A DNA stretch of 64,000 nt from an uncultured Acidobacteriota bacterium (GCA_963713825.1 CAVQNG010000014.1:54366-118365); one strand, 5' to 3'; counted from the first letter of the stretch, positions 31,308 to 58,963 are shown. Notes: generated by a model from the letters alone, not told the origin. Made by a program: numbers and translations.

Positions 31308-31371
31308 AGACTGCCTTACGACCCTGAGATGAGTCGTGTTTCACTAACTACTCGGGACTATTGCGACGAGG

Positions 31372-32427
31372 CTAACCAGGCCGAAGTGTCGCCGGTTTCA
31401 AAGCAGTCGAGGAATACCCGTCATCGGCAGTCCTGAATTGATGGACACCCAGCTTTTGCCGTCGGCCCGAGATCAAAAGATCCCTTTTCCAGTGGCGGTA
31501 ACGAGGTACCCACCATGAGCCTCCAAGTCGTTGATCTGCGATGTCACCGGACCCTCGAATCTCTGCCATTGAGCGAAGACAAGAGACGACGTCGACGCCA
31601 AAAGCACGGCTCCAAACACAAGCGCCGGCAGGGACCCCAACCGAACCCCCAGATCCGAAGGTGCGAAGCTGAAACCTGCGAGGCCCGAGACCAGAGATCT
31701 CAGGATGGACGGCTACCACTCCACCATTTCGATCGCACCTCCGTCCAGGAGTTGGGCTGTCGCGTTCGCAGCGGTGGATGGAAATTTGCCTTTGTGAGAA
31801 ATGGCAAGGCATGACCCCCTTCCTGGCATACGAGAGAGGAATCCGTGGATCGCGAAGACCACGTAGGGGCCAATCTCGACCGTCCCGCTCGACCGGAATC
31901 TCTGGTAGGACGTCCGCGGCTTCAAATGGATCGAACACCCCTTCCAGAGCCTGTGTCAGCTTCATGGGAAAACGAGCTTCGAGATCCTTGCCAAGAGGAA
32001 CCTGCGTCACGTCACCCGCCGCCATGAGGAGCGTCTCACCGCGGATCAAAGAGATGGCAAGATCAGCGGAAGACGATCTCGAGAGGTGAATCAGGTCGCC
32101 TGGTTGGCGGGCAGACATCACCTGCGTGTCGACGAAGAAGGATGCCGATGCGACCGACGCCAAGTGGCGACTTGGTGCGGTCAGCTTGATTCGACTTCGT
32201 AGAATATTGGGAAGCCAAACTCCTCGATCCCAGCCGGGGTTCGGCGTGGGGCCAGCGTCCTCGATTTGCATGTGAGGGGTATGCCCTACAAGGCGATGGT
32301 CCTGAAGCTTGCGCCCTGAGAGTTTGACGAGGTAGGTCAGCCGGGCCTCACACGACCCGCCCGAGTTTTCCCAATCCACAGGTATCTCGGCAACATAGTC
32401 GAACGTGCCACTGATGAGCATGACCAT
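31372..32427 (-). CDS. Hypothetical protein; boundaries doubtful, distal half reads through a repeat element
   Basis: The first ~190 codons have protein-like composition (MVMLISGTFDYVAEIPVDWENSGG...SLIRGETLLMAAGDV). The remainder is Arg/Gly-rich and overlaps repeat A at 31622-31880. Confidence 0.25.
   Translation of the reverse strand: MVMLISGTFDYVAEIPVDWENSGGSCEARLTYLVKLSGRKLQDHRLVGHTPHMQIEDAGPTPNPGWDRGVWLPNILRSRIKLTAPSRHLASVASASFFVDTQVMSARQPGDLIHLSRSSSADLAISLIRGETLLMAAGDVTQVPLGKDLEARFPMKLTQALEGVFDPFEAADVLPEIPVERDGRDWPLRGLRDPRIPLSYARKGVMPCHFSQRQISIHRCERDSPTPGRRCDRNGGVVAVHPEISGLGPRRFQLRTFGSGGSVGVPAGACVWSRAFGVDVVSCLRSMAEIRGSGDIADQRLGGSWWVPRYRHWKRDLLISGRRQKLGVHQFRTADDGYSSTALKPATLRPG
31622..31880. 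repeat. Repeat A: degenerate tRNA-Arg 3'-half homolog fused to a ~190-bp shared sequence
   Basis: gcgccggcagggac..ccgaacccccagatccgaag matches the 3' half of the tRNA-Arg at 58887-58931. The following ~190 bp are shared only with repeat B (48172-48404), e.g. ggctaccact..accatttcgatcgcacctcc and ggaatccgtggatcgcgaagac.acgtaggggcc. Confidence 0.55.
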
Positions 32428-32849
32428 GGTTCACCTCTATAGCTGTGCTGTCAAAAAGGAGGGTTGATGTAGTCGCTGAGCCGTGCCGCTCCCTTCAGTA
32501 CTCCAACCCGATTCGCAGCATCAGGCGGCGGGGTTTGACCCACATTCTGGGCACGAACTCGTCGCCTTCATTGAGCACGTAGTCACCGAACTGGACAACC
32601 GCAGAGCTGTTGAGCAGGGATCTCGAAAGAACCGAAGAAAAGACTTGACAAGATTTTCGCGTCATTTTTCGGAGCCTCTGAGGTCGACCCTTGAAAGAGT
32701 CTGTGTGGCCCTGGGTGACTTCCTGCGTGGCGTACCTCGCGATGCGTGACGAAAATGCCTCGAGGCCCCTCGATCGTGCGCCAGAAGACATCCTAAAGCG
32801 TTGAAAATAGTAGGTTTATAATGGTGCGTGACTCCTGGAGAGAACGCTC

Positions 32850-34172
32850 ATGATCGAACCTATTGCTACCCCGACTACGAAATCACAACTCGGCCCTGGA
32901 ACTTCGGAGGTCGACCAGCTCGGCGATCGAATCGCCGAGCTCTCGGCCCAGATCCAGGCTGCCACCTACCACCTGCTGGTCCTGATCCGGGAGTTCGACG
33001 AGAAGAGCGGTTGGAACACCGGCTTTCGCTCCTGTGCCCATTGGCTCAACTGGCGCACTGGGCTCGACCTGGGCGCGGCCCGGGAGAAGGTACGAGTGGC
33101 CAAGGCCCTGGGCGAGTTGCCGCTTCTTTCCGAGGCGATGGGTTGTGGGGAGCTCTCCTACTCCAAGGTCAGGGCCCTGACCCGAGTGGCGACCCGTGAG
33201 AACGAGGCGGAGCTCCTCGAATTCGCTCGGGCTGGAACGGCCGCCCATGTGGAGAAGCTGGTGCGGGCCTGGCGCCGTGTCGATCGGCAGGACGAGGTCC
33301 ACCGAGAGAATCTACGTCACGCCAGCCGCTACCTGGCGGCCACCACGGATTACGACGGCATGATCGTGCTACGGGCACGATTGGACCCGGAAGTGGGAGC
33401 CGCTCTGCTGAAAGCTCTGGAGGCAGCCGAGCAGGTGCTCTATGACAGAGAGCGGGAGACCAAGGACGAGCGAGGCGATGGAATCGCGGTCCGCCAGCGA
33501 CGAGCGGATGCCATAGGTCTTGTCGCCGAAAGTGCGCTGGATGGCGGGATGGACCAAGGAACTCGGGCCGAGCGCTTGCAGGTGGTGGTGCATGTCGACG
33601 AGGAGGTTCTGGCCGATCCGCAAGCCGCAGGGGTGTCCATGCTGGAGGACGGCACAGACGTTTCCGCGGAAACGTCCCGGAGGCTCTCCTGCGATGCCGG
33701 CAAGGTGGTCATGAAACACGATTCCGAGGGCAATATCCTCGATGTCGGCCGTCGAACTCGCACGATTCCCACCCCGATTCGCCGCGCTCTGACCGCCAGG
33801 GACGAAGGCTGCCAGTTTCCGGGCTGCGGATTGAAGCATTGCGAGGCTCACCACCTCAAACACTGGGCCGACGGAGGAAAGACCAGCCTCGAAAACCTGG
33901 TTCTGCTGTGTCGCCGTCACCATCGCGCCGTGCACGAAGAGGGATACCGCATCGAGCACATTGGGGATGGCGGGCTGCGCTTCTTCCGACCCCAGGGCTG
34001 GGAGATTCCGAGCGTTCCTCCGCCACCACCCCTGGTCGAGGACCCCTTGGCGGAGCTCGAGAGCCTGCTCGACGAGGAAGACATCTCGATCGACTCCCAC
34101 ACAGGGTTTCCGCGCTGGCAGGGAGAGCGACTCGACCTCAACTGGGCGGTCCAGGGCTATCGACAGCTGTGA
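32850..34172 (+). CDS. HNH endonuclease, DUF222 (REP13E12-type) family
   Basis: N-terminal DUF222 region. C-terminal HNH motif EGCQFPGCGLKHCEAHHLKHWADGGKTSLENLVLLCRRHHRAVHE. An AT-rich TATAAT-containing stretch lies 28 nt upstream. Confidence 0.8.
   Translation: MIEPIATPTTKSQLGPGTSEVDQLGDRIAELSAQIQAATYHLLVLIREFDEKSGWNTGFRSCAHWLNWRTGLDLGAAREKVRVAKALGELPLLSEAMGCGELSYSKVRALTRVATRENEAELLEFARAGTAAHVEKLVRAWRRVDRQDEVHRENLRHASRYLAATTDYDGMIVLRARLDPEVGAALLKALEAAEQVLYDRERETKDERGDGIAVRQRRADAIGLVAESALDGGMDQGTRAERLQVVVHVDEEVLADPQAAGVSMLEDGTDVSAETSRRLSCDAGKVVMKHDSEGNILDVGRRTRTIPTPIRRALTARDEGCQFPGCGLKHCEAHHLKHWADGGKTSLENLVLLCRRHHRAVHEEGYRIEHIGDGGLRFFRPQGWEIPSVPPPPPLVEDPLAELESLLDEEDISIDSHTGFPRWQGERLDLNWAVQGYRQL
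33658..33675. repeat. 18-bp perfect palindrome ACGTTTCCGCGGAAACGT (copy 1, inside the HNH ORF)
   Basis: Exact palindrome. The same core recurs at 34182-34197 and 35071-35088. Confidence 0.5.
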
Positions 34173-34181
34173 CGGACCCGG

Positions 34182-34246
34182 CGTTTCCGCGGAAACGTCT
34201 GCGCACCCTCCTCAGGGCGCCCGAATCGGCTGGCACCGTTCCCGAT
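34182..34246. repeat. Repeat unit: palindrome core CGTTTCCGCGGAAACG plus downstream CGAATCGGCTGGCACC box
   Basis: Lies 10 nt after the HNH stop. Both sub-motifs recur at 35041-35165. Confidence 0.5.
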
Positions 34247-34253
34247 CCCCGAG

Positions 34254-34592
34254 TCACAGCGCCAGTACCAGGCGAATACCCTCATCAATGCGAGTCATCG
34301 CTTGGGTTGTCAGGCGACCGACCGGTTTAGAGAGAAAGGAGCGGTCGAGTGTGAGCAGCTGCGACACATTCACAACCGAGTCCTTGGGGAGCCAGCTGGT
34401 CTTCTTCTTCAGCAATACGTTGCCGGGAGAATCTGCCAGGCGTAGGTTCGATGTAATGACCGCGACGACAACGGTCTGAATCCGGCTGGCATTGAAGGCG
34501 TCGGATTGCACGATGAGGACAGGCCGGCGAAGCCCAGGGCCAGAGCCCTGAGGCCGGGGGAGTGAGGCCCACCGGATCTCCCCCCGCTGCAC
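34254..34592 (-). CDS. Type II toxin, MazF/PemK/Kid-family mRNA interferase
   Basis: MQRGEIRWASLPRPQGSGPGLRRPVLIVQSDAFN...VVAVITSN follows the PemK/MazF fold pattern (RG-I/V-W..L.P..G.E...RP.LIVS). The start shares 1 nt with the antitoxin stop. Confidence 0.75.
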   Translation of the reverse strand: MQRGEIRWASLPRPQGSGPGLRRPVLIVQSDAFNASRIQTVVVAVITSNLRLADSPGNVLLKKKTSWLPKDSVVNVSQLLTLDRSFLSKPVGRLTTQAMTRIDEGIRLVLAL

Positions 34593-34828
34593 TACCAGTC
34601 CTCGGAATCCAGCGTAGCGAGTTGCAGGGTGTCGAGGATGGGATCGACTCGCGCTGGCTCGTCGCTGTAGATCTGGTTGAGACTCTCGGTGACTTCAAGG
34701 TGTTGATGCTCGGCCACGAAACACCGAACTGCCGTGGCATAGAGTCGGCTCCGGGAAAGACCCAAGCGTTGGGCAAGTTGCTCGGCTGCCTCGTAGACCT
34801 GGTCAGGAATCGAGATCGCGGTTTTCAT
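34592..34828 (-). CDS. Cognate antitoxin (RHH/MazE-PemI-like)
   Basis: MKTAISIPDQVYEAAEQLAQRLGLSRSRLYATAV is an RHH DNA-binding N-terminus. Directly upstream of and overlapping the toxin. Confidence 0.6.
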   Translation of the reverse strand: MKTAISIPDQVYEAAEQLAQRLGLSRSRLYATAVRCFVAEHQHLEVTESLNQIYSDEPARVDPILDTLQLATLDSEDW

Positions 34829-34833
34829 GTCTA

Positions 34834-34855
34834 TAGTATAACCAAAGTTATACTA
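34834..34855. promoter_or_regulatory. Perfect palindrome TAGTATAAC-CAAA-GTTATACTA immediately upstream of the antitoxin start; candidate operator
   Basis: 9-bp arms, 6 nt upstream of the ATG at 34828. AT-rich. Confidence 0.4.
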
Positions 34856-35040
34856 ATGAGTCAGTGATGGAGCTGAGCTGATCCGACAGCCTGGAATCGA
34901 GCCGGGAAACAGTACCCCGGAGCTTTCTAGATCTTGGTCTATCTGTATGGAGCTTCGTTACGCTTCAGGTTGTGGATCGTCAGGAGTCCACCCTGACACC
35001 CAGTCGTAGCAAAGGCCTGTTGATATCCCCGAACCGTCGC

Positions 35041-35165
35041 AGAATCGGCTGCCCCCTATTCGCAGTTCCGACGTTTCCGCGGAAACGTCTTCAGGCGGGG
35101 GCAAACCCCGCCCCTGCTCTAATACCCACCCCTGCGCCTAAATTCGAGATCGGCTGGCACCCACC
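35041..35165. repeat. Repeat unit copy 3 (AGAATCGGCTGCCCC, palindrome ACGTTTCCGCGGAAACGT, CGAGATCGGCTGGCACC)
   Basis: Shares both sub-motifs with 34182-34246. Together the copies bracket the MazEF pair. Confidence 0.5.
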
Positions 35166-35450
35166 TAGTAACCCAACTAGTACGGGCAGTGGCGAAAGGG
35201 GAGAAACAGTGCACGAAGGCGTGAGGATGCGAACCAACCCCTTGGTCCACTCCTGGTCCATTTCGGTGGAACTTGTGGACGGTTCCCGAACTATCAGTAA
35301 GTCCTTCCGATAGGTTTCCGTGACAAGGGGAGGTATCTCGGAGCCACGCGAGCGACTCGTGAATATTGAGATGACTGTCCCGATAGTTCAGACTAGGAAG
35401 ACAAGGCTGGGCGCAAGTGCCGCCACTCAGAAACAGCCTGTGAGAGCTTT

Positions 35451-36641
35451 CTATTCCACTGTATTCGACCACGCCGAGGTGTCGCCGGACTCGAAGCCGT
35501 CTCTGAATAACAGCTGAGGGGTCATGTCTCCGAGGGCAACGTGATATGTGTCGTTCTCGTCGGAGCTAAGATCGGTACAGCTGAATCCACCCAGGCCATC
35601 TCCGAGACACAACCGATTCCGCGCCTGGTAGTTCCCGAAAACAGCATCGAGGTATTGATCGTCGTCGACGTAGCTTAGAGCGACACCAAGAGAGTCGAAC
35701 TCGTCGGTACTGACATCGCCGCAGGTGAAGTGCCCGGCTCCATCTCCGAGGCACACTCGATTTCGACCGAAGGCGACCCCGAACACGGCATCGAGGTTCT
35801 GATCGTCGTCGATCAACCCCAAAGAAACTCTCGTGTGGAAGTGTTCGTCCGTGCTGACATCGCTACAAGTGAAGCCGCCCAGGCCATTGCCAATACAGAC
35901 GCGGTTGCGTTGTTCTTTGTTGGCGAAGACGGCATCGAGAATCTGGTCGTTGTCGATGTAGCCCAGAGCAACGCCAGTCGAGTAGAACTCGTCGCTACTG
36001 ACATCACTGCAAGTGAAGCCACCCAAACCGTCCCCAAGGCAGATGCGATTGCGCGGCTGACTCGGGAAACCAGTACCCCAGACTGCAAAGACGGCGTCAA
36101 GGACCTGATCGTTGTCAACTAGGCCCAGCGCAACATCTGTGGCACCAACGATGTCGGTGCCAACGTTGCTGCAGGTGAACTGTCCGGCTCCATCTCCGAG
36201 GCATACGCGATTCGGCGTGGCCGCATTGTGACCTCCAATGATGGCGTCGAGGTGCTGATCGCCATCAATAAGTCCGAGCGCCACGCCGGATGAGCCTTCT
36301 GCTACAGTATCGACATAACTGCAAGAGGAAAATCTCCCCAAGCCGTCGCCAAAGCAGACACGGTCGCGTTGATGTGCGCGATTGGCAAACACAGCATCGG
36401 GGTGCTGATCGCCATCCACGAGGCCGAGCGCAACCGTCCCGCCAGCGTCCTCGTCATCGCTGACATCACTACACATGAACCCTGCACCACCGTCGCCAAG
36501 GCAGAAACGATCTGGAGATCCCCAGACCGCAAAAACAGCGTCTAAGGATTCACTCGCCGACACCGCCCCGGCACCGACCATTGCTGACAAAAGCACAATC
36601 AGTCCGGCACAGACTTTCAACCTCTCTCTCATCTCGAACAT
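35451..36641 (-). CDS. Secreted FG-GAP / VCBS-type repeat beta-propeller protein
   Basis: Signal peptide. About seven repeats of D.DQ.LDAVF...NRVC.GDG.G.F(T/S)C.DVS.DE. Confidence 0.75.
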   Translation of the reverse strand: MFEMRERLKVCAGLIVLLSAMVGAGAVSASESLDAVFAVWGSPDRFCLGDGGAGFMCSDVSDDEDAGGTVALGLVDGDQHPDAVFANRAHQRDRVCFGDGLGRFSSCSYVDTVAEGSSGVALGLIDGDQHLDAIIGGHNAATPNRVCLGDGAGQFTCSNVGTDIVGATDVALGLVDNDQVLDAVFAVWGTGFPSQPRNRICLGDGLGGFTCSDVSSDEFYSTGVALGYIDNDQILDAVFANKEQRNRVCIGNGLGGFTCSDVSTDEHFHTRVSLGLIDDDQNLDAVFGVAFGRNRVCLGDGAGHFTCGDVSTDEFDSLGVALSYVDDDQYLDAVFGNYQARNRLCLGDGLGGFSCTDLSSDENDTYHVALGDMTPQLLFRDGFESGDTSAWSNTVE

Positions 36642-36865: not shown

Positions 36866-39628
36866 CTAGAACTCAACCCTCAAGCCCAGCTCGTAGCGGC
36901 GGGGGAGCTGCCATTCGGTGGCGTCGCCTTGCTCGTACTCGCCACAACCGCTGACCCGGCCGCAGATGTCGGTAGCGTTCTCCGAGTCGAAGAGGTTGAG
37001 GACCGTTCCGATCAACCGTAGGCGGGTGCGCCCGAGGTTGAAATCCTTGGAGAGCTGGACGTCGAGCTGGCCCCACTCGTCTCCTTCACGGCTACCACGG
37101 GGCTCGACAAGAATGTTGCCCCAGGCACCTGGATCGACGGTGGCCGCAGGACGGACCGGGGTCCAACGGAAAGGCGACCCCCAGACTCCGTTGAATCCGA
37201 TGCCGAAGTCCAGCGGCAAGAAGACATAACCGCTCGCCTTCAGTCGGTGCTTGCGGTGATAGCCGAGATAGCCGTCACGATTCGTGAAGTGGTAGGGATA
37301 CAGATCGAAATCGGTCGACGCGATATTGCTGTGAGTCGAGCCTTCGGAATTGGAGTTGGTGTACGAGGCCAGCACGTGGAGGCGATCCAGCGCTCGGCTT
37401 TCGAAGCTCAAGAGCCATCCGGTGTAGTCGCGACGAGCCTGGGGAAGATTGGCGATGATGAATCCAGTGCAACTGGTACCGGTTGTAGGTGTCGGGTAGT
37501 TTTCGACACAGGTGTCGTCGAACACGTCGCGTGTGGCCTTGTCGACGTAACTCAGCTCGAGAGAGGTGCGGCGGAGGAGCTCCCTTTCGAAGCCGATGAT
37601 GAAAGTATCGACGTACTGGGGTGTGAGATCGGACGCGATGACAGAGGGCTCTGACCCGACGGTATTGAAGAGTAGCCATCCCGCAGGATCCCAGTGGTTG
37701 GGATCAAAACGCCATTCCAGACCCTGGCTTGCACCCACTGCGGCGCACACCTCGGGATCAGTCACCCCCACGATGGTCGTGCAGGAGCCCCAGATCCTTC
37801 CGGTCTCCACCGCGGTGATCGCCGCGCGCGGCAACTGAAGGAAGCTCGAGTGCATGAAGCGGCCCCCCGATGCTCGAAGAAGATTGCGTCCGTTCCGCGT
37901 CAGGTCCCAGGTGACCCCGAGGCGGGGCTGGAGCATCTGGAGATCCGCCACCTCCTGCCCTATGTCGTTGTCGTAGATCGCGCGGTCCCAGCGAAGCCCG
38001 AGCTGAAGCGTGACATCCGGCCGCACACGCCAGGAATCCTGAACGAACAGGTCGGTGATCGAGCCCGTCGTTTCATAGGGTCCCGAAGGCGACAGGGCCT
38101 GCATCAGGTACGGAATGCTGGTGCCGGAAGCGGATAGATCACCGTACTGGTAGCCTTCCTCGCCTTGCCGACAGAGCCCTCCGCCCTGGATTCCGGTCCA
38201 ACACGTATTCCGGTCTTGGGAGGTTTGGTGAATTTCGCCCCCAACCTTGATGTCGTGGCTGCCCAAGGCTTCATCCACGAACCAAGTGAAATCAGTGCCG
38301 ACCTGGTCCCGTCGGATGCCTGTGGAGCGGAGCGTCAGATAGTTGCCGGTTATGAGTCCGGTGTCGAGGTTGTAGTGCTGTATCAGGGAGTTGTCACCGC
38401 TCATGGGGCCCAATTCGTCATCGACCCAGTCCGAACCGATGTGCATCTCCCAGAGGAGGCTTCGCGCCAAGACCCCGGACACCTCGGCCTGGAAGAGGGT
38501 GTAGGGACGTTCCCAGCGACCCGTCGCCTCGGCAGCCGTGAATGTCCCGGAACCCGCATTGGTACTCTCAAAAGGGGTTCTGAGGTACTTTGCCTGGACC
38601 AACCAGTTCGGAGCCGCCTGACCGGTGATCTTGATGAAGGCCGGGGTGCTTGCCTGTCGCTCCGTGGTGGGGGAATCGAGCCAGGTCCAGCGGTAGTCGT
38701 GCGACTCGAGCGAGCCGAAGAACCAGGCTCGGTCGCGAACGAGGCGGCCACCGAGGGTGACGCCCGCGATGCTCGTGCTCGAAGTCTGTTCGTCGGGATT
38801 GTAGTGATCCCCAGAGGTCTCGAGGTTGTTGTCCGTGTAGCGGATATCGACTGCTCCCGACCAGGCATTGCTGCCGGACTTCGTCAGCGCATTGATGACC
38901 CCACCCGTAGCACGTCCAAACTCGGCTTGGAAGCCTCCCGATTCGAAGGCCACCTCCTGGATGGCGAGGGTTGGGTATCCCACCTGAGGGCCACCCCAGC
39001 TCGGGCTCGTAGCATCGAGGCCGTCGATCAGGAACACGTTCTCTGACCCAGTAGACCCTAAAACGCTCTGGGTGAAGTAGAAACCAGACTCTCCCGCCGG
39101 AAACGTGGAGCCGGTCCCAGCCGCCTGCAGAATCAGCTGTATGTGCGAATAGCGAACGCCTAGGCCGACCGCTGCCTCCTGGATGAAGTCGTTGGTGAAG
39201 CTCTGCCCCGTGGACACTCTCTGAGGATCCACTACGGGTGTCGTTTCGGTGACCGTGATCTCGTCCCCATATCTGGCGAGCGGCAGGACGACCCGCACCT
39301 GAGCCATGCGCTCCAGGCGCACCTGGACCTCGGTGAGCTCCTGGGTGTGGAAGCCGTCGAGCTCGAGGCGCACGGTGAAGTACCCGGGGCTCAGACGGGG
39401 ATACTGGAACCATCCCTCGGCGTCGGTCTGGGTCGTCTGGACTCCGCCGATCTGGTTGGGAGAACTCGCTGAGACCGCGACACCGGGCAGTGGCACACCT
39501 TCCCCGTCGACTACAAAGCCCGAAAGCCGCCCCGTAGTTCCAGCGTGAACGGGTTCGGCCAGGGTCAGAACTACAGCAGCCATTGCGATGATCAGGCATG
39601 CGGATGGGACAGCAGCTCCCGCTTTCAT
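36866..39628 (-). CDS. TonB-dependent receptor with N-terminal carboxypeptidase-regulatory-like domain
   Basis: Start MKAGAAVPSACLIIAMAAV with a GGAAGGAGAG RBS. CarboxypepD_reg-like segment (GRLSGFVVDGEGVPLPGVAVSA...DAEGWFQYPRLSPGYFTV). Plug and 22-strand barrel, with a terminal aromatic (...LGLRVEF). Confidence 0.85.
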   Translation of the reverse strand: MKAGAAVPSACLIIAMAAVVLTLAEPVHAGTTGRLSGFVVDGEGVPLPGVAVSASSPNQIGGVQTTQTDAEGWFQYPRLSPGYFTVRLELDGFHTQELTEVQVRLERMAQVRVVLPLARYGDEITVTETTPVVDPQRVSTGQSFTNDFIQEAAVGLGVRYSHIQLILQAAGTGSTFPAGESGFYFTQSVLGSTGSENVFLIDGLDATSPSWGGPQVGYPTLAIQEVAFESGGFQAEFGRATGGVINALTKSGSNAWSGAVDIRYTDNNLETSGDHYNPDEQTSSTSIAGVTLGGRLVRDRAWFFGSLESHDYRWTWLDSPTTERQASTPAFIKITGQAAPNWLVQAKYLRTPFESTNAGSGTFTAAEATGRWERPYTLFQAEVSGVLARSLLWEMHIGSDWVDDELGPMSGDNSLIQHYNLDTGLITGNYLTLRSTGIRRDQVGTDFTWFVDEALGSHDIKVGGEIHQTSQDRNTCWTGIQGGGLCRQGEEGYQYGDLSASGTSIPYLMQALSPSGPYETTGSITDLFVQDSWRVRPDVTLQLGLRWDRAIYDNDIGQEVADLQMLQPRLGVTWDLTRNGRNLLRASGGRFMHSSFLQLPRAAITAVETGRIWGSCTTIVGVTDPEVCAAVGASQGLEWRFDPNHWDPAGWLLFNTVGSEPSVIASDLTPQYVDTFIIGFERELLRRTSLELSYVDKATRDVFDDTCVENYPTPTTGTSCTGFIIANLPQARRDYTGWLLSFESRALDRLHVLASYTNSNSEGSTHSNIASTDFDLYPYHFTNRDGYLGYHRKHRLKASGYVFLPLDFGIGFNGVWGSPFRWTPVRPAATVDPGAWGNILVEPRGSREGDEWGQLDVQLSKDFNLGRTRLRLIGTVLNLFDSENATDICGRVSGCGEYEQGDATEWQLPRRYELGLRVEF

Positions 39629-39653
39629 CGAGGCTCTCCTTCCAGGTACAGCA

Positions 39654-42600
39654 TCAGGGCCACTCGGGGATCGCGGCCCAGCCGGGGAAGGGCGCGTAGC
39701 CGAGCTTCCAACCAGTCGGGGAGTCGGAATTTTCGACGACTCGAACGTTGGTCCGCGAATGGAGCTCGGCGAGCAGCTCATCATGTGGCAGGGTGTGAAG
39801 GGGTGGTTTAGACATGTCCGGAAAAGGCCAGACTCGCACAGTCCGGTCGTCGCCTACCGAGGCAATCCAACGACCGTCGGGAGACACCGCGATGGTTCGA
39901 ACGAGGCCCCGATGGCCGATTAGTAGGTGCGGTTCCTCTCCCGATACCGGGCCGACTCGCAAGGGACCGTCCAGCCCCCCACTGATGATCCACTGGTCAG
40001 AAGGATGGAGGGCGATCCGGAAGGGGTCTGGATGGGTGTCGAGGCGACGTGTCTCCCTCCCGTCGAGGCTACTCCAGGCAAGGTGGGACCGGAGATCCTC
40101 GGTGCTGTAGGCGTCGCCGTCCCAGTGCACGTCTATTTTGAATTCACCGTTGGAACTGAGTGCCCGTGTCGCGACCATTCCCTCTTCTGCCACTACCTCG
40201 ACACTGTTGTCTTCAAGATCGAAGACTCTCTCTCCACCCGTAGCGCCCGGGACGACCCCCGCGGCCCCGACCCAGCGGAGCCTTCGGTTGTCATCGAAGC
40301 GGAGAAAGGAGGTGCTACCAGGGACCGGTCCCAGTACCTGGACCTTGTTCGTCAGCAGGTCCCAGACACGTATGACCATCTCTTCTGCTGCGCCGTTCAT
40401 CAAGGCGGAAGCTAGTAGACGGCCGTCAGGGCTGAAGTCGAGCTCCATGCCGTAACGACCCCGTCCTGGCCACTCGGCGGGCATCTCTCGAACTTCTCCT
40501 CCCTCGAGCGGAACGATCATCACCGTGGACCAGCTCGAGACCGCCACATTTCTTCCGCTCGGATCGAAGGCCATCGAGGTGAAGCCTCTGAGCCTCTCAT
40601 CAGTGAGCACGCGCATCTTGCCCTCGTTCTGACCTTCGAGCGGCCAGGCAAGCAATCCGTCTCGTCCTACCGATAGCAGAAGCCAACTTCCATCTGGGCT
40701 GAACTGCAGATCACCCGCATTGCCTTCGAACCCATGAAACACAGATCGAGATCGACTGGGCAGGGGCCAGAATGCAGCATTGCCAAGGTAGGCAGAGACG
40801 ACCATCCGGCCACTGGGGTGCAGGGCGACACCGTGTGAAAAGACCTCGTCTGCCTTGCGGAGAACCAGGGGTTCAGCGGCAGGAGGTGCGCTCAAGTCCC
40901 AGAGGCGCACCGAGGCGACGCCTTGCTCCATTCCCCTGAAACCCAGCCACCTTCCGGTCGGGCCATACCCGACCCGGGACCGCACCACGACCCCCTTGAG
41001 GTTGCCCATTGCCAGGGTTCGGAGCGGCCGAGTTGATTCTCCTTCGAGTGACCAGATCTTCAACTCTCCCAACTCATCTCGTGCCGCCACTCGATCCCCT
41101 AAGGGGTGAAACGAGAGCTCCAGAACCTCGGCCGGGTGCTGGCCGACCTGGCGGGGCGCCCGCATCCACTCGTCGAGCGAGCGAATGAAGACCCGGTCCT
41201 GCCTGTTGTAGGCCATCCTCGAGCCGTTGGTGTCGATGTCAAAGGCATTGCCCCAGGCCGGCATACTGCCGATCAGCCGCGACTCACCTTCCTCGTAGGG
41301 CCACCAGCGAATTTCTGCCACCTCCTCATCCACCGAAACGCTGTAGTAACCATCGCCGCTCGGAGCGTGGAGTTGTCCCCGGCTGTCTTCGGCACTGCGA
41401 AGTTCCCTTCCCTCGGGAATGGAGAACCAGCGGAACTCACCCTGCTTCTCGATAATGACCAGGTCATCGAGCGGGAACGCGACTGCCGGTGGATACAGCT
41501 GATTCGGATAGTTGACAAGAGTGATAGCTTCCTTGCCATCTTCGGGAAGCACGGTCACCCTGTCCCACCCGTTGATCGCCAGCCACTCCCCGCTCGGGCT
41601 GAACACGAGGCCAGAAGCCCGAGACTCCTCGTTCGCCGGAAGTACTGTTGCCGGGGGAGCCATCTGGAGCGCACGCAGGGCGAGCATGCGCCCCTCCTCG
41701 GTGTCGAAGACCTCGAGGCTCTTGGTCGCCCAGGCGAGTGCGGCGGTCGGATATCTGTCGATCTCGAGCTCGCCCAGGGCCAGCAGGCGACCGGATTCCG
41801 CCCGGAGACGTTCCTGCTCAGCCCGATGCCAGAAGCCAGCGACAATGGTCAGACCAACAAGGAGAAGAGTAATGACCGTGGTGACCGCAATTCCTTTCTG
41901 CCGCCTGCGGCGCTCAGCAAACGAGGTCATCGCCCTCGCGAAGGCCTCCTCGGTATCCGTCAGTCCACCTGGGTAACGCTCGCGCCAAAGCTCGTACTCC
42001 TTGAATGCGTTCCCGGTCCAGAGATAGTCCTCGGAGCGGCGGTGCTCCTCCCAGATCCGGGCCTGGCTGCGAAGCTCGTCGCGAAGCTGTGCTCCTTCGG
42101 CGTCTTGTGTCTGCCATCGCACCAGCCGCGGCCAGTTTGAAAGCAGGGACTCGTGGATGATCTCGATGCGGTGGTGCAGCCCACCGCCTTCCTCGTCGGC
42201 AGGGACCTCGAAGGAGGTGAGGAGGCGAGCGTCGATGAGGGTGGACAGGACGCTCGCCGCTGCGCTGCGAGACCCCGCGCCAGCGGTGCCCTGTTTGTCG
42301 AAGACCGAGAACAGCTCCTGGCGGTCTCGAGAATCGCGGGTGCCCTCGGCGGTGACGAGATTGCGAAAGATCTCACGCACAATCGGCACGTTGGCTTCGC
42401 CGATGTAGTCGAGAGTCGCCTCCGCATGCTGAGCCAGGGCCCCACTCACGCCGCCGATTTGGTGGTAGCTCTTGCGAGTCAGGAGTCCGGTCTCGCGGTC
42501 GCGGCGGTCCCAGAGCTGGGCGGCGGCAAACGCGAGCAAGGGCAGGGCACCACGCTGGCCTTCGATCTCGCCCAGCATCTGCTCCACGATTCCTTCGTCC

Positions 42601-44210
42601 TCGAAGCCGTAGCCGCACCGCAGGGCTGGCTCGACCAGAGCCCGCCGCAGAGCTGCCCCGGTCGGAGCACCCAGGAGTGTCAGATCCGTGAGGATAGGCC
42701 GCAAGGCCTCGAAGTGATGACAATGGAACAGAAAATCATCCCGCATCGAGAGCAGGACGTGAATGTCGACTTCGAGGGGCAATCGACCCAGCACATCGGC
42801 GAACGATGACTGTACTATTGCAGTGTTCTGGGTGAAGAGCTCTTCGAATTGATCGACGATGAGGAGCGCGTGCGTGTGACTTCGACGCCACTCGGTCAGC
42901 AACTCGACCGCGACGTCGGGATCCTCGAGGTGTTGCAGGAGGTAGCTTGCGCTCGGCACATCGCGTAGCTCCACGGGCAGTGCTCGAGCGAGGTGGTCGA
43001 ACGGTCGGTTCCCTGGAGTCATCACGAGCGCTTGCCAGCCGTCGATCAGCGTGGGTAGCAAGCCCGCCCTCAGGAAGGAACTTTTTCCAGCACCTGAAGG
43101 CCCGATGAGAGCGAGCAGATGAGGCCGCCTAAGCTTCTTCCACAGCGATTCGATTTCCAGCTCTCTGCCGTAGAAGTGATCCGCATCCTCCTCTTGGAAG
43201 GCTGCCAATCCCGGATAGGGGCGGGCCTGTTCGTCACCGACGGCTCGTAGAGTCACCTCCTCGAGGGCTCTGGCCAGCTCTGCCGCGCTCGAGAAGCGTT
43301 CGCCGGGAGCCGGCGTAGCACACCGACGAATCACGCGTGACCAGGGGGTCTCGGTCACATGGGGTCCTTCCTGATGGAGTGCCTCCCAGATCGCTTGTCG
43401 ATCCTCGAAGGTCTTGACCCCATGCGGTTCAACCATCTCCGCCAGAAGGATGCCGGCTGAGAAGACATCCGAGCGGGCATCCAGATCGGCGCCCCGGGCT
43501 TGCTCGGGGGACATGTAGGGCGGTGTCCCGGCTACGAAACCACTTCTGCTGTCGCCAAGGCCTTTGGTGATGCCGAAGTCCATGACGACGACCCGGCCGG
43601 TGCGGGTCATCATGACGTTCTCGGGCTTGATGTCGCGGTGCACGAGGCCGGCATCGTGAATCGCTTCCAGTCCCGCCAGGAACTGCGAGGCGATCTCTCG
43701 GGCTTCAACGAGGTCCAGGGGAGAGCGCTCCTCGAGAATCTCCTGGAGCGTCGTCCCATCGATGTACTCCATCAGCACCAGCTCCTGGCCGTCGAGTTCC
43801 TCGAGATCGTAGACGCGGCAGACGTTGGGTGAGATCACTCGGCGTGCCGCTCGGACTTCCTTGCGCAGGGCCTCGAGCGCTTCCCTGTTCTGGATCAGCT
43901 CGGGGCGCAGTGCTTTCAGTGCCACATCCTGACGGAGCTTCAGGTCGTAGGCTCTCCAGACGTCACCCATGCCGCCTCGCCCGACAAGCGAGCGAAAACG
44001 GTAGCGACCGCCGAGGACTCGGCCTTCCTGGAAGGTGTCGCCTGGAGGGAGGTGCTCTCGGTCTACTTCCGACTCCGCCAACACCTCGGCCTCGATAGAG
44101 GTGTCGTCGAGTGCCATCGAAAGAAGGCAGCTCGGGCACAGTCCTTCGCTACCACCCTTCCTCGAAAGGGGTACCCCACATGTCGGGCACTGGACCGATG
44201 CGGCCTTCAT
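39654..44210 (-). CDS. Multidomain Ser/Thr protein kinase: Zn-ribbon, Pkinase, nSTAND P-loop NTPase, TM helix, WD40-type beta-propeller
   Basis: Start [16 protein letters not shown]...CPSC with a GGAGAG RBS. Kinase motifs [12 protein letters not shown] and [23 protein letters not shown] followed by [14 protein letters not shown] (Walker A). One TM helix ([19 protein letters not shown]). C-terminal WD40/PQQ-like repeats. Confidence 0.85.
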
Positions 44211-44287
44211 GGTCTCTCTCCCATCCTCGGCCGTGGGCATCCACGGTCGTCAGGCTCGAGAGAAATAGACCGAAGCCAGGCTAGGTG

Positions 44288-58886: not shown

Positions 58887-58963
58887 TGGCGCGCCGGCAG
58901 GGACTCGAACCCCGAACCCCCAGATCCGAAGTCTGGTGCTCTATCCAATTGAGCTACCGGCGC
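58887..58963 (-). tRNA. tRNA-Arg (anticodon TCG)
   Basis: The reverse complement GCGCCGGTAGCTCAATTGGATAGAGCACCAGACTTCGGATCTGGGGGTTCGGGGTTCGAGTCCCTGCCGGCGCGCCA folds as a 77-nt cloverleaf. 7-bp acceptor stem, D-arm GCTC/GAGC, anticodon stem CCAGA/TCTGG with loop CTTCGGA, T-arm CGGGG/CCCTG with TTCGAGT loop, and an encoded CCA. Confidence 0.85.

Follow-up and report, generated by a model that had tools for sequence, protein, structure and literature searches.

A 64,000-nucleotide stretch of DNA from an uncultured Acidobacteriota bacterium (GCA_963713825.1, CAVQNG010000014.1:54366-118365; hereafter the window) contains a locus in which a gene for a DUF222-HNH endonuclease is followed by a MazEF toxin–antitoxin (TA) module and in which an 18-bp palindrome, ACGTTTCCGCGGAAACGT, recurs three times (Table 1). 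The palindrome is exact in copies A and C; copy B differs from it by a single mismatch at the first base, G for A, and the 16-bp core within copy B begins at 34182. The original prediction, made from the sequence alone, had placed the palindrome and its core at these positions, with one copy embedded in the open reading frame (ORF) of the HNH gene and the other two bracketing the MazEF pair. A mismatch-tolerant search of the window confirmed these placements, copy A being in frame and the toxin matching the PemK/MazF profile over its full length. With up to two mismatches allowed, no palindrome beyond copies A, B, and C was found anywhere in the 64-kb window, and the sole extra match at up to five mismatches was one unrelated 5-mismatch stretch. 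The chance expectation is nil (mean 0.00, maximum 0 in dinucleotide-preserving shuffles), and all three copies fall within 1.4 kb, at the HNH locus. Counting preferred flanks, the palindrome is effectively ~20–22 bp long (22-bp form, AGACGTTTCCGCGGAAACGTCT), and the family of related sites follows the pattern GTYYCNGCNGRRAC with a dyad.

Copies B and C are each paired with a downstream box of consensus CGA(A/G)ATCGGCTGGCACC, as originally noted, at +41 and +75 nt, respectively. A third, weaker box copy precedes palindrome C, and in L211, one of the related loci designated here by L numbers, the corresponding mazE upstream region carries a perfect box without a palindrome. The box–palindrome spacing is fixed in six units (+39 to +42 nt), and the box is found alone too. 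A reading of the box as a sigma-54 promoter was rejected by eye: TGGCAC is present, but the −12 GC element is absent at the proper spacing. The ‘PB’ flank that follows copy B aligns with the post-palindrome units of L119, L122, L123, and L205 and is absent at the palindrome-free mazEF loci of L122 and L211. The position of copy B relative to the HNH stop codon is identical in L121, L122, L123, and L207. A degenerate half-copy lies near the end of the HNH gene; at this C-terminal spot L043 and L075 encode VSAET, and RFRGN is encoded nearby in L012 and L043.

Table 1 Features of the DUF222-HNH/MazEF locus in the window
Feature	Position	Strand	Description
Outer-membrane beta-barrel (TonB-receptor-like) 3'-end fragment	32495–32600	-	translation ends ...LRIGLEY, then stop; left edge of conserved HNH unit
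HNH gene upstream region (leader or promoter)	32636–32849	+	nucleotide homology
DUF222-HNH endonuclease gene, 440 aa	32850–34172	+	DUF222 then HNH
Palindrome copy A	33658–33675		inside HNH ORF, in frame; codes (D)VSAET(S), ~residue 270
Degenerate half-copy	34101–34118		GGGTTTCCGCGCTGGCAG, codes GFPRW; C-terminal spot where other homologues hold a full copy
Palindrome copy B	34181–34198		GCGTTTCCGCGGAAACGT; begins 9 nt past HNH stop; left junction of inserted segment
Inserted segment, 890 bp	34199–35088		PB flank, mazF, mazE and upstream region, one palindrome copy
‘PB’ flank	34199–34253	+	conserved ~45-nt unit after palindrome, ending in box CGAATCGGCTGGCACC
Box after copy B	34222–34237		CGAATCGGCTGGCACC
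mazF, PemK-family toxin, 112 aa	34254–34592	-	PF02452, E 9e-25, profile 1–109 of 109
Antitoxin-like gene, 78 aa	34592–34828	-	overlaps mazF by 1 base; ribbon-helix-helix-like by eye
mazEF promoter-like site	34835–34864	-	promoter scan; overlaps separate small palindrome GTATAACCAAAGTTATAC (34836–34853)
Third, weaker box copy	35041–35056	+	AGAATCGGCTGccccc/AGAATCGGCTGCCCCC; 30 nt before palindrome C; part of mazE upstream region
Palindrome copy C	35071–35088		right junction of inserted segment
Right flank of original site	35089–35161	+	GC-rich hairpin GGCGGGGGCAAACCCCGCC, then box CGAGATCGGCTGGCACC
Box after copy C	35145–35161		CGAGATCGGCTGGCACC

The closest relatives of the HNH protein are found in Thermoanaerobaculia (Acidobacteriota) metagenome-assembled genomes, and one of them preserves the locus without the TA module. 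The HNH protein of L121 is 91% identical in amino acids to that of the window; window 32483–34203 aligns with L121 5634–7354 (87%), and window 35067–35157 aligns with L121 7328–7417 (90%). The order in L121 is the HNH gene, a palindrome at stop+9, and then the flank that follows copy C in the window (90% identical), with nothing between them and MazEF absent. Copies B and C thus both map to the single L121 palindrome, so that the 890-bp MazEF segment represents an insertion at the palindrome that duplicated it. The presence or absence among relatives for which the original prediction had called is therefore found: the MazEF segment entered exactly at a pre-existing palindrome, leaving a copy on each side.

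A second chromosomal position, in which the HNH gene lies among genes for a kinase, CheR, and DinB, occurs in three states. In L207, CheR follows a single palindrome; in L123, a 205-bp unit lies between two; and in L119 two palindromes enclose a helix-turn-helix (HTH) antitoxin and an AbiEii-like toxin. Elsewhere, the palindrome and box-bearing flank are followed by a 93-aa protein with an HTH_3 protein in L122 and by MNT with HepT in L205, and in L214 the HNH gene is followed by a single gene with a palindrome on either side. Extragenic palindromes and cassettes are present at all eight loci of the window's clade. Cassette orientation varies: mazEF is opposite to HNH in the window, and the TA pair of L119 is co-oriented with it. 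At position 4305 of L205, the palindrome joins a 30-nt piece of HNH coding sequence, the stretch that precedes the in-gene copy, to a cassette flank with MNT/HepT behind it, a hybrid junction indicating that the in-gene copy also takes part in cassette events.

The module itself is not confined to palindromes. The mazF/antitoxin pair is kept in L122, L208, L211, and L212; in L122 and L208 this operon, free of palindromes, is separated from the HNH gene by a few kb, and in L211 it immediately precedes the HNH unit. The window shares its upstream genes for dihydrodipicolinate synthase and aldehyde dehydrogenase with L121, and its downstream genes for an outer-membrane barrel protein and a kinase-STAND-WD40 protein with L122. 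This gene sharing indicates that the HNH gene was inherited in place and that the neighbouring small modules turn over.

Several further observations concern the same junctions and modules. The HNH neighbourhood in L204, L205, L207, and L208 holds many TA pairs (VapBC, ParDE, MNT/HepT, HigBA-like, and MazEF), the set varying by genome, and only some of these pairs have bounding palindromes. In L211 (380–600), which has a MazF of 91% identity, the left edge of the HNH unit is immediately preceded by mazFE together with its box-carrying upstream region, and no palindrome intervenes; in the window this segment is instead found past the HNH gene, between palindromes. The window counterparts are 34980–35070 and 32495–32550, and both L211/window junctions fall right after ...TTCGCAG. 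Candidate att-like direct repeats at 32507–32545 and 35054–35115, the palindrome being taken as an insertion, were rejected (alignment score 37, against 27.4 ± 5.1 and a maximum of 47.5 in shuffles); L211 shows that both stretches relate to the junction after ...TTCGCAG. A segment of ~55 nt forming a 15-bp GC-rich hairpin (GGGTCCTCCAGGGGG...CCCCCTGGAGGACCC) is present in L123 (7395–7536), between the two palindromes, and in L119 (2860–2945), inverted and between the HNH stop and the first palindrome. The two loci are not related by a simple inversion between palindromes: the hairpin segment is inverted but the orientation of the box is kept.

To determine how far the association of palindrome and HNH gene extends, the exact palindrome was scanned in one genome per species (596 Gb). 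At least 119 loci were found, against ~9 expected for a random 18-mer by our own estimate. The matches listed come from Gammaproteobacteria, Acidobacteriota, Gemmatimonadota, Actinomycetota, Rokubacteria, Methylomirabilota, and Myxococcota, with almost no Bacillota, Bacteroidota, or enterobacteria. Among them, 46–49 copies lie inside DUF222-HNH homologues of 36–80% identity and ~17 within 400 bp of such a homologue, the remainder having unrelated flanks. The palindrome is thus tied to DUF222-HNH genes across phyla; about half of the exact copies listed are distant from HNH genes. Carriage by phages or plasmids was considered and rejected, with one exact palindrome in 2.9 million viral contigs and one plasmid homologue (Rhodococcus) at E < 1e-20.

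The exact-match sample is conditioned on the palindrome. A second sample was therefore drawn independently of it, comprising 80 homologues from metagenomes picked by peptide patterns elsewhere in the protein. The palindrome (up to two mismatches) is present inside the gene in 62 of these 80 homologues and exact in 26. The position of copy A (~residue 271) is occupied, at the same threshold, in 55 of the 80, and a second in-gene position, at ~residue 207, in 17. Only two extragenic copies, at 2 of the 80 loci, were found in ~300 kb of flanks. These counts indicate that the in-gene site is family-wide and that extragenic copies and cassettes are a lineage feature. In-gene copies also occur at other positions and in other frames, encoding VSAET, RFRGNV, or TFPRK-like peptides, and several in-frame linker copies are present in L054, L067, L062, L113, and P0083 (L214). 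Overlapping tandem palindromes with a 14-bp period and a common outer ACGT occur in four unrelated genomes (L005 5697/5711, L042 497/511, L063 3358/3372, and L214 ~1463/1477).

By eye, the surroundings of 69 HNH-distant copies include several PIN, HicB, BrnT, and ribbon-helix-helix pairs as well as LexA, DnaE2-like, UvrB, GyrA, MnmE, and MurF. One of ~20 HNH-distant copies in coding-looking ORFs, at ~1942 of L031, is an exact palindrome with seven further symmetric bases per side (tcgatg...catcga) inside a long GyrA-like ORF that, from its sequence motifs, seems to contain an intein.

The in-gene copy encodes a conserved family peptide, VSAETSRRLACDA, and we compared codon use at the V-S-A-E-T site with that of the same genes elsewhere. 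Each codon of the palindrome is strongly favoured at the site: GTT is used in 93% of cases against a background of 7%, GAA in 94% against 21%, TCC in 87% against 27%, GCG in 89% against 45%, and ACG in 96% against 49%. Two-sided changes occur at 8 of the 9 dyad pairs (30 cells in the 80-sequence alignment), a level reached by 0 of 500 shuffles, and partners shifted by 1–3 columns, used as a control, score far lower. Variants are mostly symmetric double changes that keep the dyad even when the amino acids differ. The symmetric variant GTTCCCGCGGGAAC encodes VPAGT instead of VSAET; others have outer CTG...CAG or CATTTCC...GGAAATG; and the central CCGCGG is replaced, also symmetrically, by CAGCTG, CTGCAG, or CGGCCG. 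Selection thus acts on the DNA dyad and not on the peptide, family-wide. The innermost pairs, which would form the loop of any hairpin, stay symmetric, which favours duplex DNA read by a symmetric dimer.

Symmetric variation extends to the extragenic sites in one lineage. L214 carries the variant ACGTTCCCGCGGGAACGT at all six of its sites, four in the gene, one 11 nt past the stop, and one past the next gene. Of the 25 loci that combine in-gene with extragenic copies, 17 have the canonical sequence at every site, and L214 alone has a symmetric variant, at sites that agree with one another; the remaining differences are single asymmetric changes, except for one probable chance match in L179. 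On the Rhodococcus erythropolis plasmid NZ_CP050126 (L213), a homologue of 34% identity has no in-gene copy, and a variant palindrome, ACGTCCCCGCGGGGACG, lies at 2822–2839, at the stop of a GNAT gene and 93 nt upstream of the DUF222-HNH start codon.

The HNH protein matches PF02720 (DUF222; E 6.4e-24, residues 33–318) and PF01844 (HNH; E 3.1e-7, residues 323–363), and more than 8000 homologous clusters were matched, spread over Acidobacteriota, Gammaproteobacteria, Actinomycetota, Gemmatimonadota, Rokubacteria, and Myxococcota. The HNH catalytic and zinc residues (C321, C326, H334, H335, N349, C354, H357, H358, and H362) are invariant or nearly so. A sequence search of the PDB found the HNH domain only, in IscB, McrA, and similar proteins, and PADLOC returned one marginal match, to a generic endonuclease effector model (E 0.002). 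In the AlphaFold2 model, residues 20–158 have a predicted local distance difference test score (pLDDT) above 90, the linker of residues 159–315, which holds the site-encoded peptide, is poor, and the HNH domain is moderate. Foldseek matched the predicted structure to complexes of Noc with the Noc-binding site (NBS), to Noc, and to ParB at probabilities of 0.95–1.0 and with weak E-values (0.05–0.6); the HNH part matched McrA and TagI. The helical N-terminal domain, as modelled, resembles the DNA-binding domains of ParB, Noc, and KorB. PF02195 (ParBc, the N-terminal ParB/Srx CTP-binding domain) is carried by all Spo0J homologues and was found in 0 of 61 family members even at E up to 5.

The DNA sites of these proteins are also similar. 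The parS consensus is TGTTTCAC-GTGAAACA and the NBS consensus TATTTCCC-GGGAAATA, with a common half-site T(G/A)TTTC(A/C)C (PMC7383237). The palindrome described here, CGTTTCCG-CGGAAACG, has its TTTC core placed identically relative to the dyad. Within its half-site, CGTTTCCG, the G at position 1 is shared with parS only, the C at position 6 with NBS only, and positions 0 and 7 are unlike both.

We propose that the 18-bp palindrome is the cognate site of a ParB-like DUF222-HNH nuclease and a hotspot where cassettes enter, a reading to which we assign a probability of roughly 55%. The suggestion in the original prediction that the palindrome is a recognition site of the HNH enzyme is favoured by the family link across phyla, the selection on the dyad, the concordance of variants, and the predicted ParB/Noc/KorB-like domain whose relatives read the same half-site core; the palindrome is probably the nuclease's own DNA site. 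We infer from these comparisons and the structural model that the HNH protein may bind the palindrome and cleave there and that breakage and rejoining may move the cassettes. Bound to duplex DNA as a dimer, the N-terminal HTH module of DUF222 would recognise both GTTTCC half-sites, leaving the tethered C-terminal HNH domain to nick or cut the DNA at the palindrome or next to it. Of the two sites at the gene, one falls in the part that encodes the interdomain linker, and the other begins 9 nt past the stop codon. The extragenic site would serve, in this Thermoanaerobaculia lineage, as a hotspot for the gain, exchange, and loss of small self-contained modules, mostly TA pairs, with a palindrome copy left on both sides at each insertion. 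The cassettes would move by breakage and rejoining or by recombination that breakage stimulates.

The invariant catalytic and zinc residues argue for an active nuclease. The tandem copies with a 14-bp period could have arisen by the joining of ends made in the self-complementary outer ACGT, a hint to the position of the cut. The DUF222-HNH loci of the REP13E12 family in M. tuberculosis, which have no defined function, are among the strongest gene-conversion hotspots of that genome (PMC13061034), which fits a break site inside the gene.

Several observations weigh against this proposal. The ParB/Noc likeness depends on a predicted structure with a mean pLDDT of 66 and on the weak Foldseek E-values given above; matches to the Pfam families ParB, KorB, and HTH_ParB were found in 0 of 61 family members; and hhalign against a Spo0J alignment found nothing, the alignment being shallow (Neff 1.3) and the test therefore weak. 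The concordance of variants rests on a single informative locus, L214. Extragenic copies at just 2 of the 80 independently sampled loci make cassette capture a trait of a lineage and not of the whole family, and among the matches listed about half of the exact 18-mers have no HNH gene within a few kb. A nuclease with an intact target in its own gene also needs explaining, by nicking only, protection, or tight control. Finally, the duplication of the site at insertion fits a conservative site-specific recombinase equally well.

Such an enzyme would be an unlinked tyrosine or serine recombinase, Xer-like or integron-like, that uses the palindromes as core sites and inserts circular cassettes, the HNH gene merely containing and neighbouring the sites. 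Exact site duplication is the product expected of conservative site-specific recombination; the presence of cassettes in either orientation fits a symmetric core; a split integrase gene lies 2 kb away in L121; and many of the exact copies listed are far from any HNH gene. We nevertheless regard this explanation as unlikely. No recombinase was found among the 17 window ORFs tested (~20.6–46.3 kb; no Phage_integrase match), and none adjoins the sites in L119, L122, L123, L204, L205, or L207. The site has neither the 11-6-11 layout of dif nor the imperfect architecture of attC. An unlinked recombinase also leaves unexplained the in-gene conservation and covariation across phyla, the variant lineage's own variant at every site, and the match of the predicted fold to readers of nearly the same half-site.

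The evidence for binding would be the same if the protein bound the palindrome without cutting it, in autoregulation or in a ParB-like nucleoprotein complex, and the cassettes moved by homologous or illegitimate recombination between the ~65-bp units of palindrome and box. ParB and its relative KorB are binders and regulators, not nucleases; a parS site lies inside spo0J itself in B. subtilis; and the ~65-bp repeated unit of this lineage is long enough for rare RecA events. That the protein only binds is nonetheless improbable given the invariance of the HNH catalytic and zinc residues across the family. Even where the flanks are unrelated (L207/L123, L121/window, and L205:4305), the junctions coincide with the palindrome, and tandem copies with a 14-bp period in four unrelated loci are hard to obtain by homologous recombination.

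The palindrome could alternatively act as a single-stranded hairpin in RNA or DNA, as an mRNA stabiliser, a terminator, or a repetitive extragenic palindromic (REP)-like element moved by a hairpin-recognising enzyme, with no need of the HNH protein. The sequence folds as a 7–8 bp hairpin, and the commonest variant of the outermost pair is G.T (40 of 80), equivalent to a G.U wobble on the sense strand. A T run follows some low-GC gammaproteobacterial copies (L024, L084, and L093) in terminator-like fashion, and 9 of 83 extragenic copies have stems extended by at least four paired bases. However, symmetry and covariation reach the central four to six bases, which would be the loop, and fold energies lie within those of shuffled controls (z −1.5 to +0.7). 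The window copies have no following T run, no copy was called as an intrinsic terminator, and Rfam is empty in 32300–35500 even at E up to 1. The copy number is low, three in 64 kb and all at the HNH locus, no HUH or REP-associated tyrosine transposase (RAYT) gene was seen, and the cassette junctions are left unexplained. A hairpin function is accordingly quite improbable.

A mere coding by-product, in which the in-gene copy reflects the codons of the conserved peptide and the intergenic copies derive from HNH genes that have decayed, would suit the conservation of VSAETSRRLACDA and the short HNH coding piece beside the intergenic copy at L205:4305 but has a negligible probability, as the chance expectation in the window is nil, synonymous positions at the site are fixed contrary to the codon preferences of these genes, the dyad persists where the amino acids change, and homologues carry the palindrome in three different reading frames. 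Copies B and C share with the in-gene copy only ~10 nt of flanking similarity, on one side of B, and show no coding similarity; an origin of the intergenic copies as HNH pseudogene relics was rejected, only L205:4305 carrying 30 nt of HNH gene flank.

We compared the locus with systems of known organization. The HNH protein is a member of the DUF222-HNH (REP13E12-type) family and has the same architecture as the REP13E12 (13E12) repeat genes of M. tuberculosis and other Actinomycetota. REP13E12 genes are repeated or selfish-looking, M. tuberculosis having several dispersed copies of ~1.4 kb, whereas here one copy falls within the 64 kb of the window and relatives keep the gene in syntenic places. 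The REP13E12 literature searched makes no mention of a conserved in-gene palindrome, a ParB-like fold, or flanking cassettes. The cassette of the window is a TA module of the MazEF/PemIK type to judge by its toxin, which has the PemK/MazF fold and a full-length profile match.

The likeness to ParB–parS, Noc–NBS, and KorB–OB, whose palindromic sites measure 13–16 bp, lies in the predicted fold of residues 20–158 and in a dyad site whose TTTC core is as far from the centre as that of parS and NBS; as in ParB–parS, the site is conserved widely across phyla. In contrast to ParB, Noc, and KorB, the protein has no N-terminal CTP-binding domain, gives no Pfam or profile signal for this family, and is fused to HNH. 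There is no partner ParA here, and no role in segregation is implied.

With integrons and pdif modules, the locus shares small modules, often TA pairs, that are bounded by a short symmetric site, and empty and filled states in related genomes. The attC sites of integrons are imperfect inverted repeats of 57–141 bp with R''/L''/L'/R' boxes (GTTRRRY), and their cassettes are mostly promoterless and co-oriented. The palindrome described here, in contrast, is perfect over 18 bp and lacks a GTTRRRY core, a promoter-like site of its own accompanies mazEF, the orientation of the cassettes varies, no IntI or Phage_integrase was found in the 17 ORFs tested in the window (~20.6–46.3 kb), and the linked enzyme is an HNH nuclease. 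The dif site is 28 bp long, with an 11-bp XerC arm, a 6-bp spacer, and an 11-bp XerD arm, the arms being unlike; the palindrome is perfectly symmetric through the centre, and the symmetry itself is under selection.

The original prediction had also considered a REP-like family. A gene flanked by short palindrome copies that are found elsewhere too, with sites that seem to co-vary with the gene lineage, does recall REP and bacterial interspersed mosaic elements (BIMEs) with their RAYT genes. These elements have tens to hundreds of intergenic copies per genome, whereas the window has three in 64 kb, all at the locus; among the matches listed, a 6.4-Mb chromosome and a 1.2-Mb contig each hold two palindrome loci. 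The palindrome is perfect through its centre, has one copy in coding sequence, and favours duplex recognition over a hairpin, and the associated protein combines HNH with HTH and is not a Y1 HUH enzyme. No RAYT-type gene is adjacent to the locus, and no HUH family member appears in the neighbour listings of the relatives' loci. A REP-like nature is not borne out by these findings.

Homing endonucleases and type IIP HNH restriction enzymes, of which KpnI and Hpy99I are examples, similarly pair an HNH nuclease with a specific DNA site at which a break could stimulate recombination. A homing site, as originally suggested, would be disrupted by the nuclease gene; here the intact site lies within and beside the gene. 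The homing interpretation is also not supported in its original form in that the gene is constant at syntenic positions among relatives and only the small adjacent cassettes come and go. Unlike restriction enzymes, the protein has no methyltransferase partner that was seen, and recognition seems to come from a separate ParB-like domain. In its working, the site system is like the cassette platforms of integrons and dif modules and partly like REP/RAYT or a nuclease paired with its cognate site, but the defining tests of integrons, dif, REP/RAYT, and homing endonucleases each fail.

The remaining features of the locus concern its borders and the TA operon. The antitoxin-like ORF has neither a Pfam nor an NCBIfam match. 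The small palindrome at its promoter-like site, GTATAACCAAAGTTATAC, is conserved in L122 and is probably the TA operator. Upstream, homology with L119, L121, L122, and L123 begins 200–370 bp before the HNH ATG, despite differing upstream genes. Window 32469–32618 matches the L122 TonB-receptor gene at its 3' end; the window has an intact beta-barrel paralogue at 36866–39784, and the 3' end of this paralogue (36866–36949) matches the sequence that immediately precedes the HNH unit in L119 and L121. The beta-barrel fragment (~100 bp) accompanies the HNH unit in L121, L122, L119, and L211.

Farther out, a 351-aa ORF at 31372–32427 has no Pfam match and may not be a gene. Window 31340–31420 and 31622–31829, upstream of the HNH unit, are 80–84% identical to intergenic DNA elsewhere in L121, which suggests that these genomes contain further small repeat families. 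An FG-GAP repeat protein gene (35451–36641, minus strand) is built of ~144–162-bp units, up to six copies with 60–83% identity, and 39654–44240 (minus strand) encodes a 1528-aa protein with kinase, STAND NTPase, and WD40-repeat parts. Rfam found nothing at gathering score across the window except one tRNA, the sole tRNA-Arg (TCG) at 58887–58963.

The literature searched in full text holds no description of this arrangement of palindrome, HNH gene, and cassettes, and the insertion of cassettes at the palindrome points to an undescribed way of collecting small gene cassettes. A broader interpretation, which we offer tentatively and consider doubtful, is that DUF222-HNH proteins are site-specific nucleases derived from ParB/Noc and that cutting in the outer ACGT would make the parS-like palindrome a portable joint between any two sites. 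The palindrome would then drive gene conversion between gene copies, duplicate in 14-bp steps, and scatter copies. In some lineages, it would form a nuclease-driven platform for cassette exchange, analogous to integrons and assembled from unrelated parts, that gathers TA and defence modules.

DUF222-HNH proteins form a very large family that includes REP13E12 of M. tuberculosis, and a defined site, a domain predicted to read it, and loci seen before and after cassette insertion together give a testable hypothesis of function. The locus also exemplifies a nucleic-acid constraint that overrides protein conservation within a coding sequence. If the proposed role of the palindrome as cognate site and cassette hotspot is true, it would explain REP13E12 loci as recombination hotspots, add nuclease-linked capture of gene cassettes to integrons and dif modules, and provide a compact protein with an 18–22 bp palindromic specificity that seemingly co-evolves with its site. 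Should the palindrome further prove to be a portable joint, this would supply a mechanism for many thousands of uncharacterised genes, REP13E12 among them.

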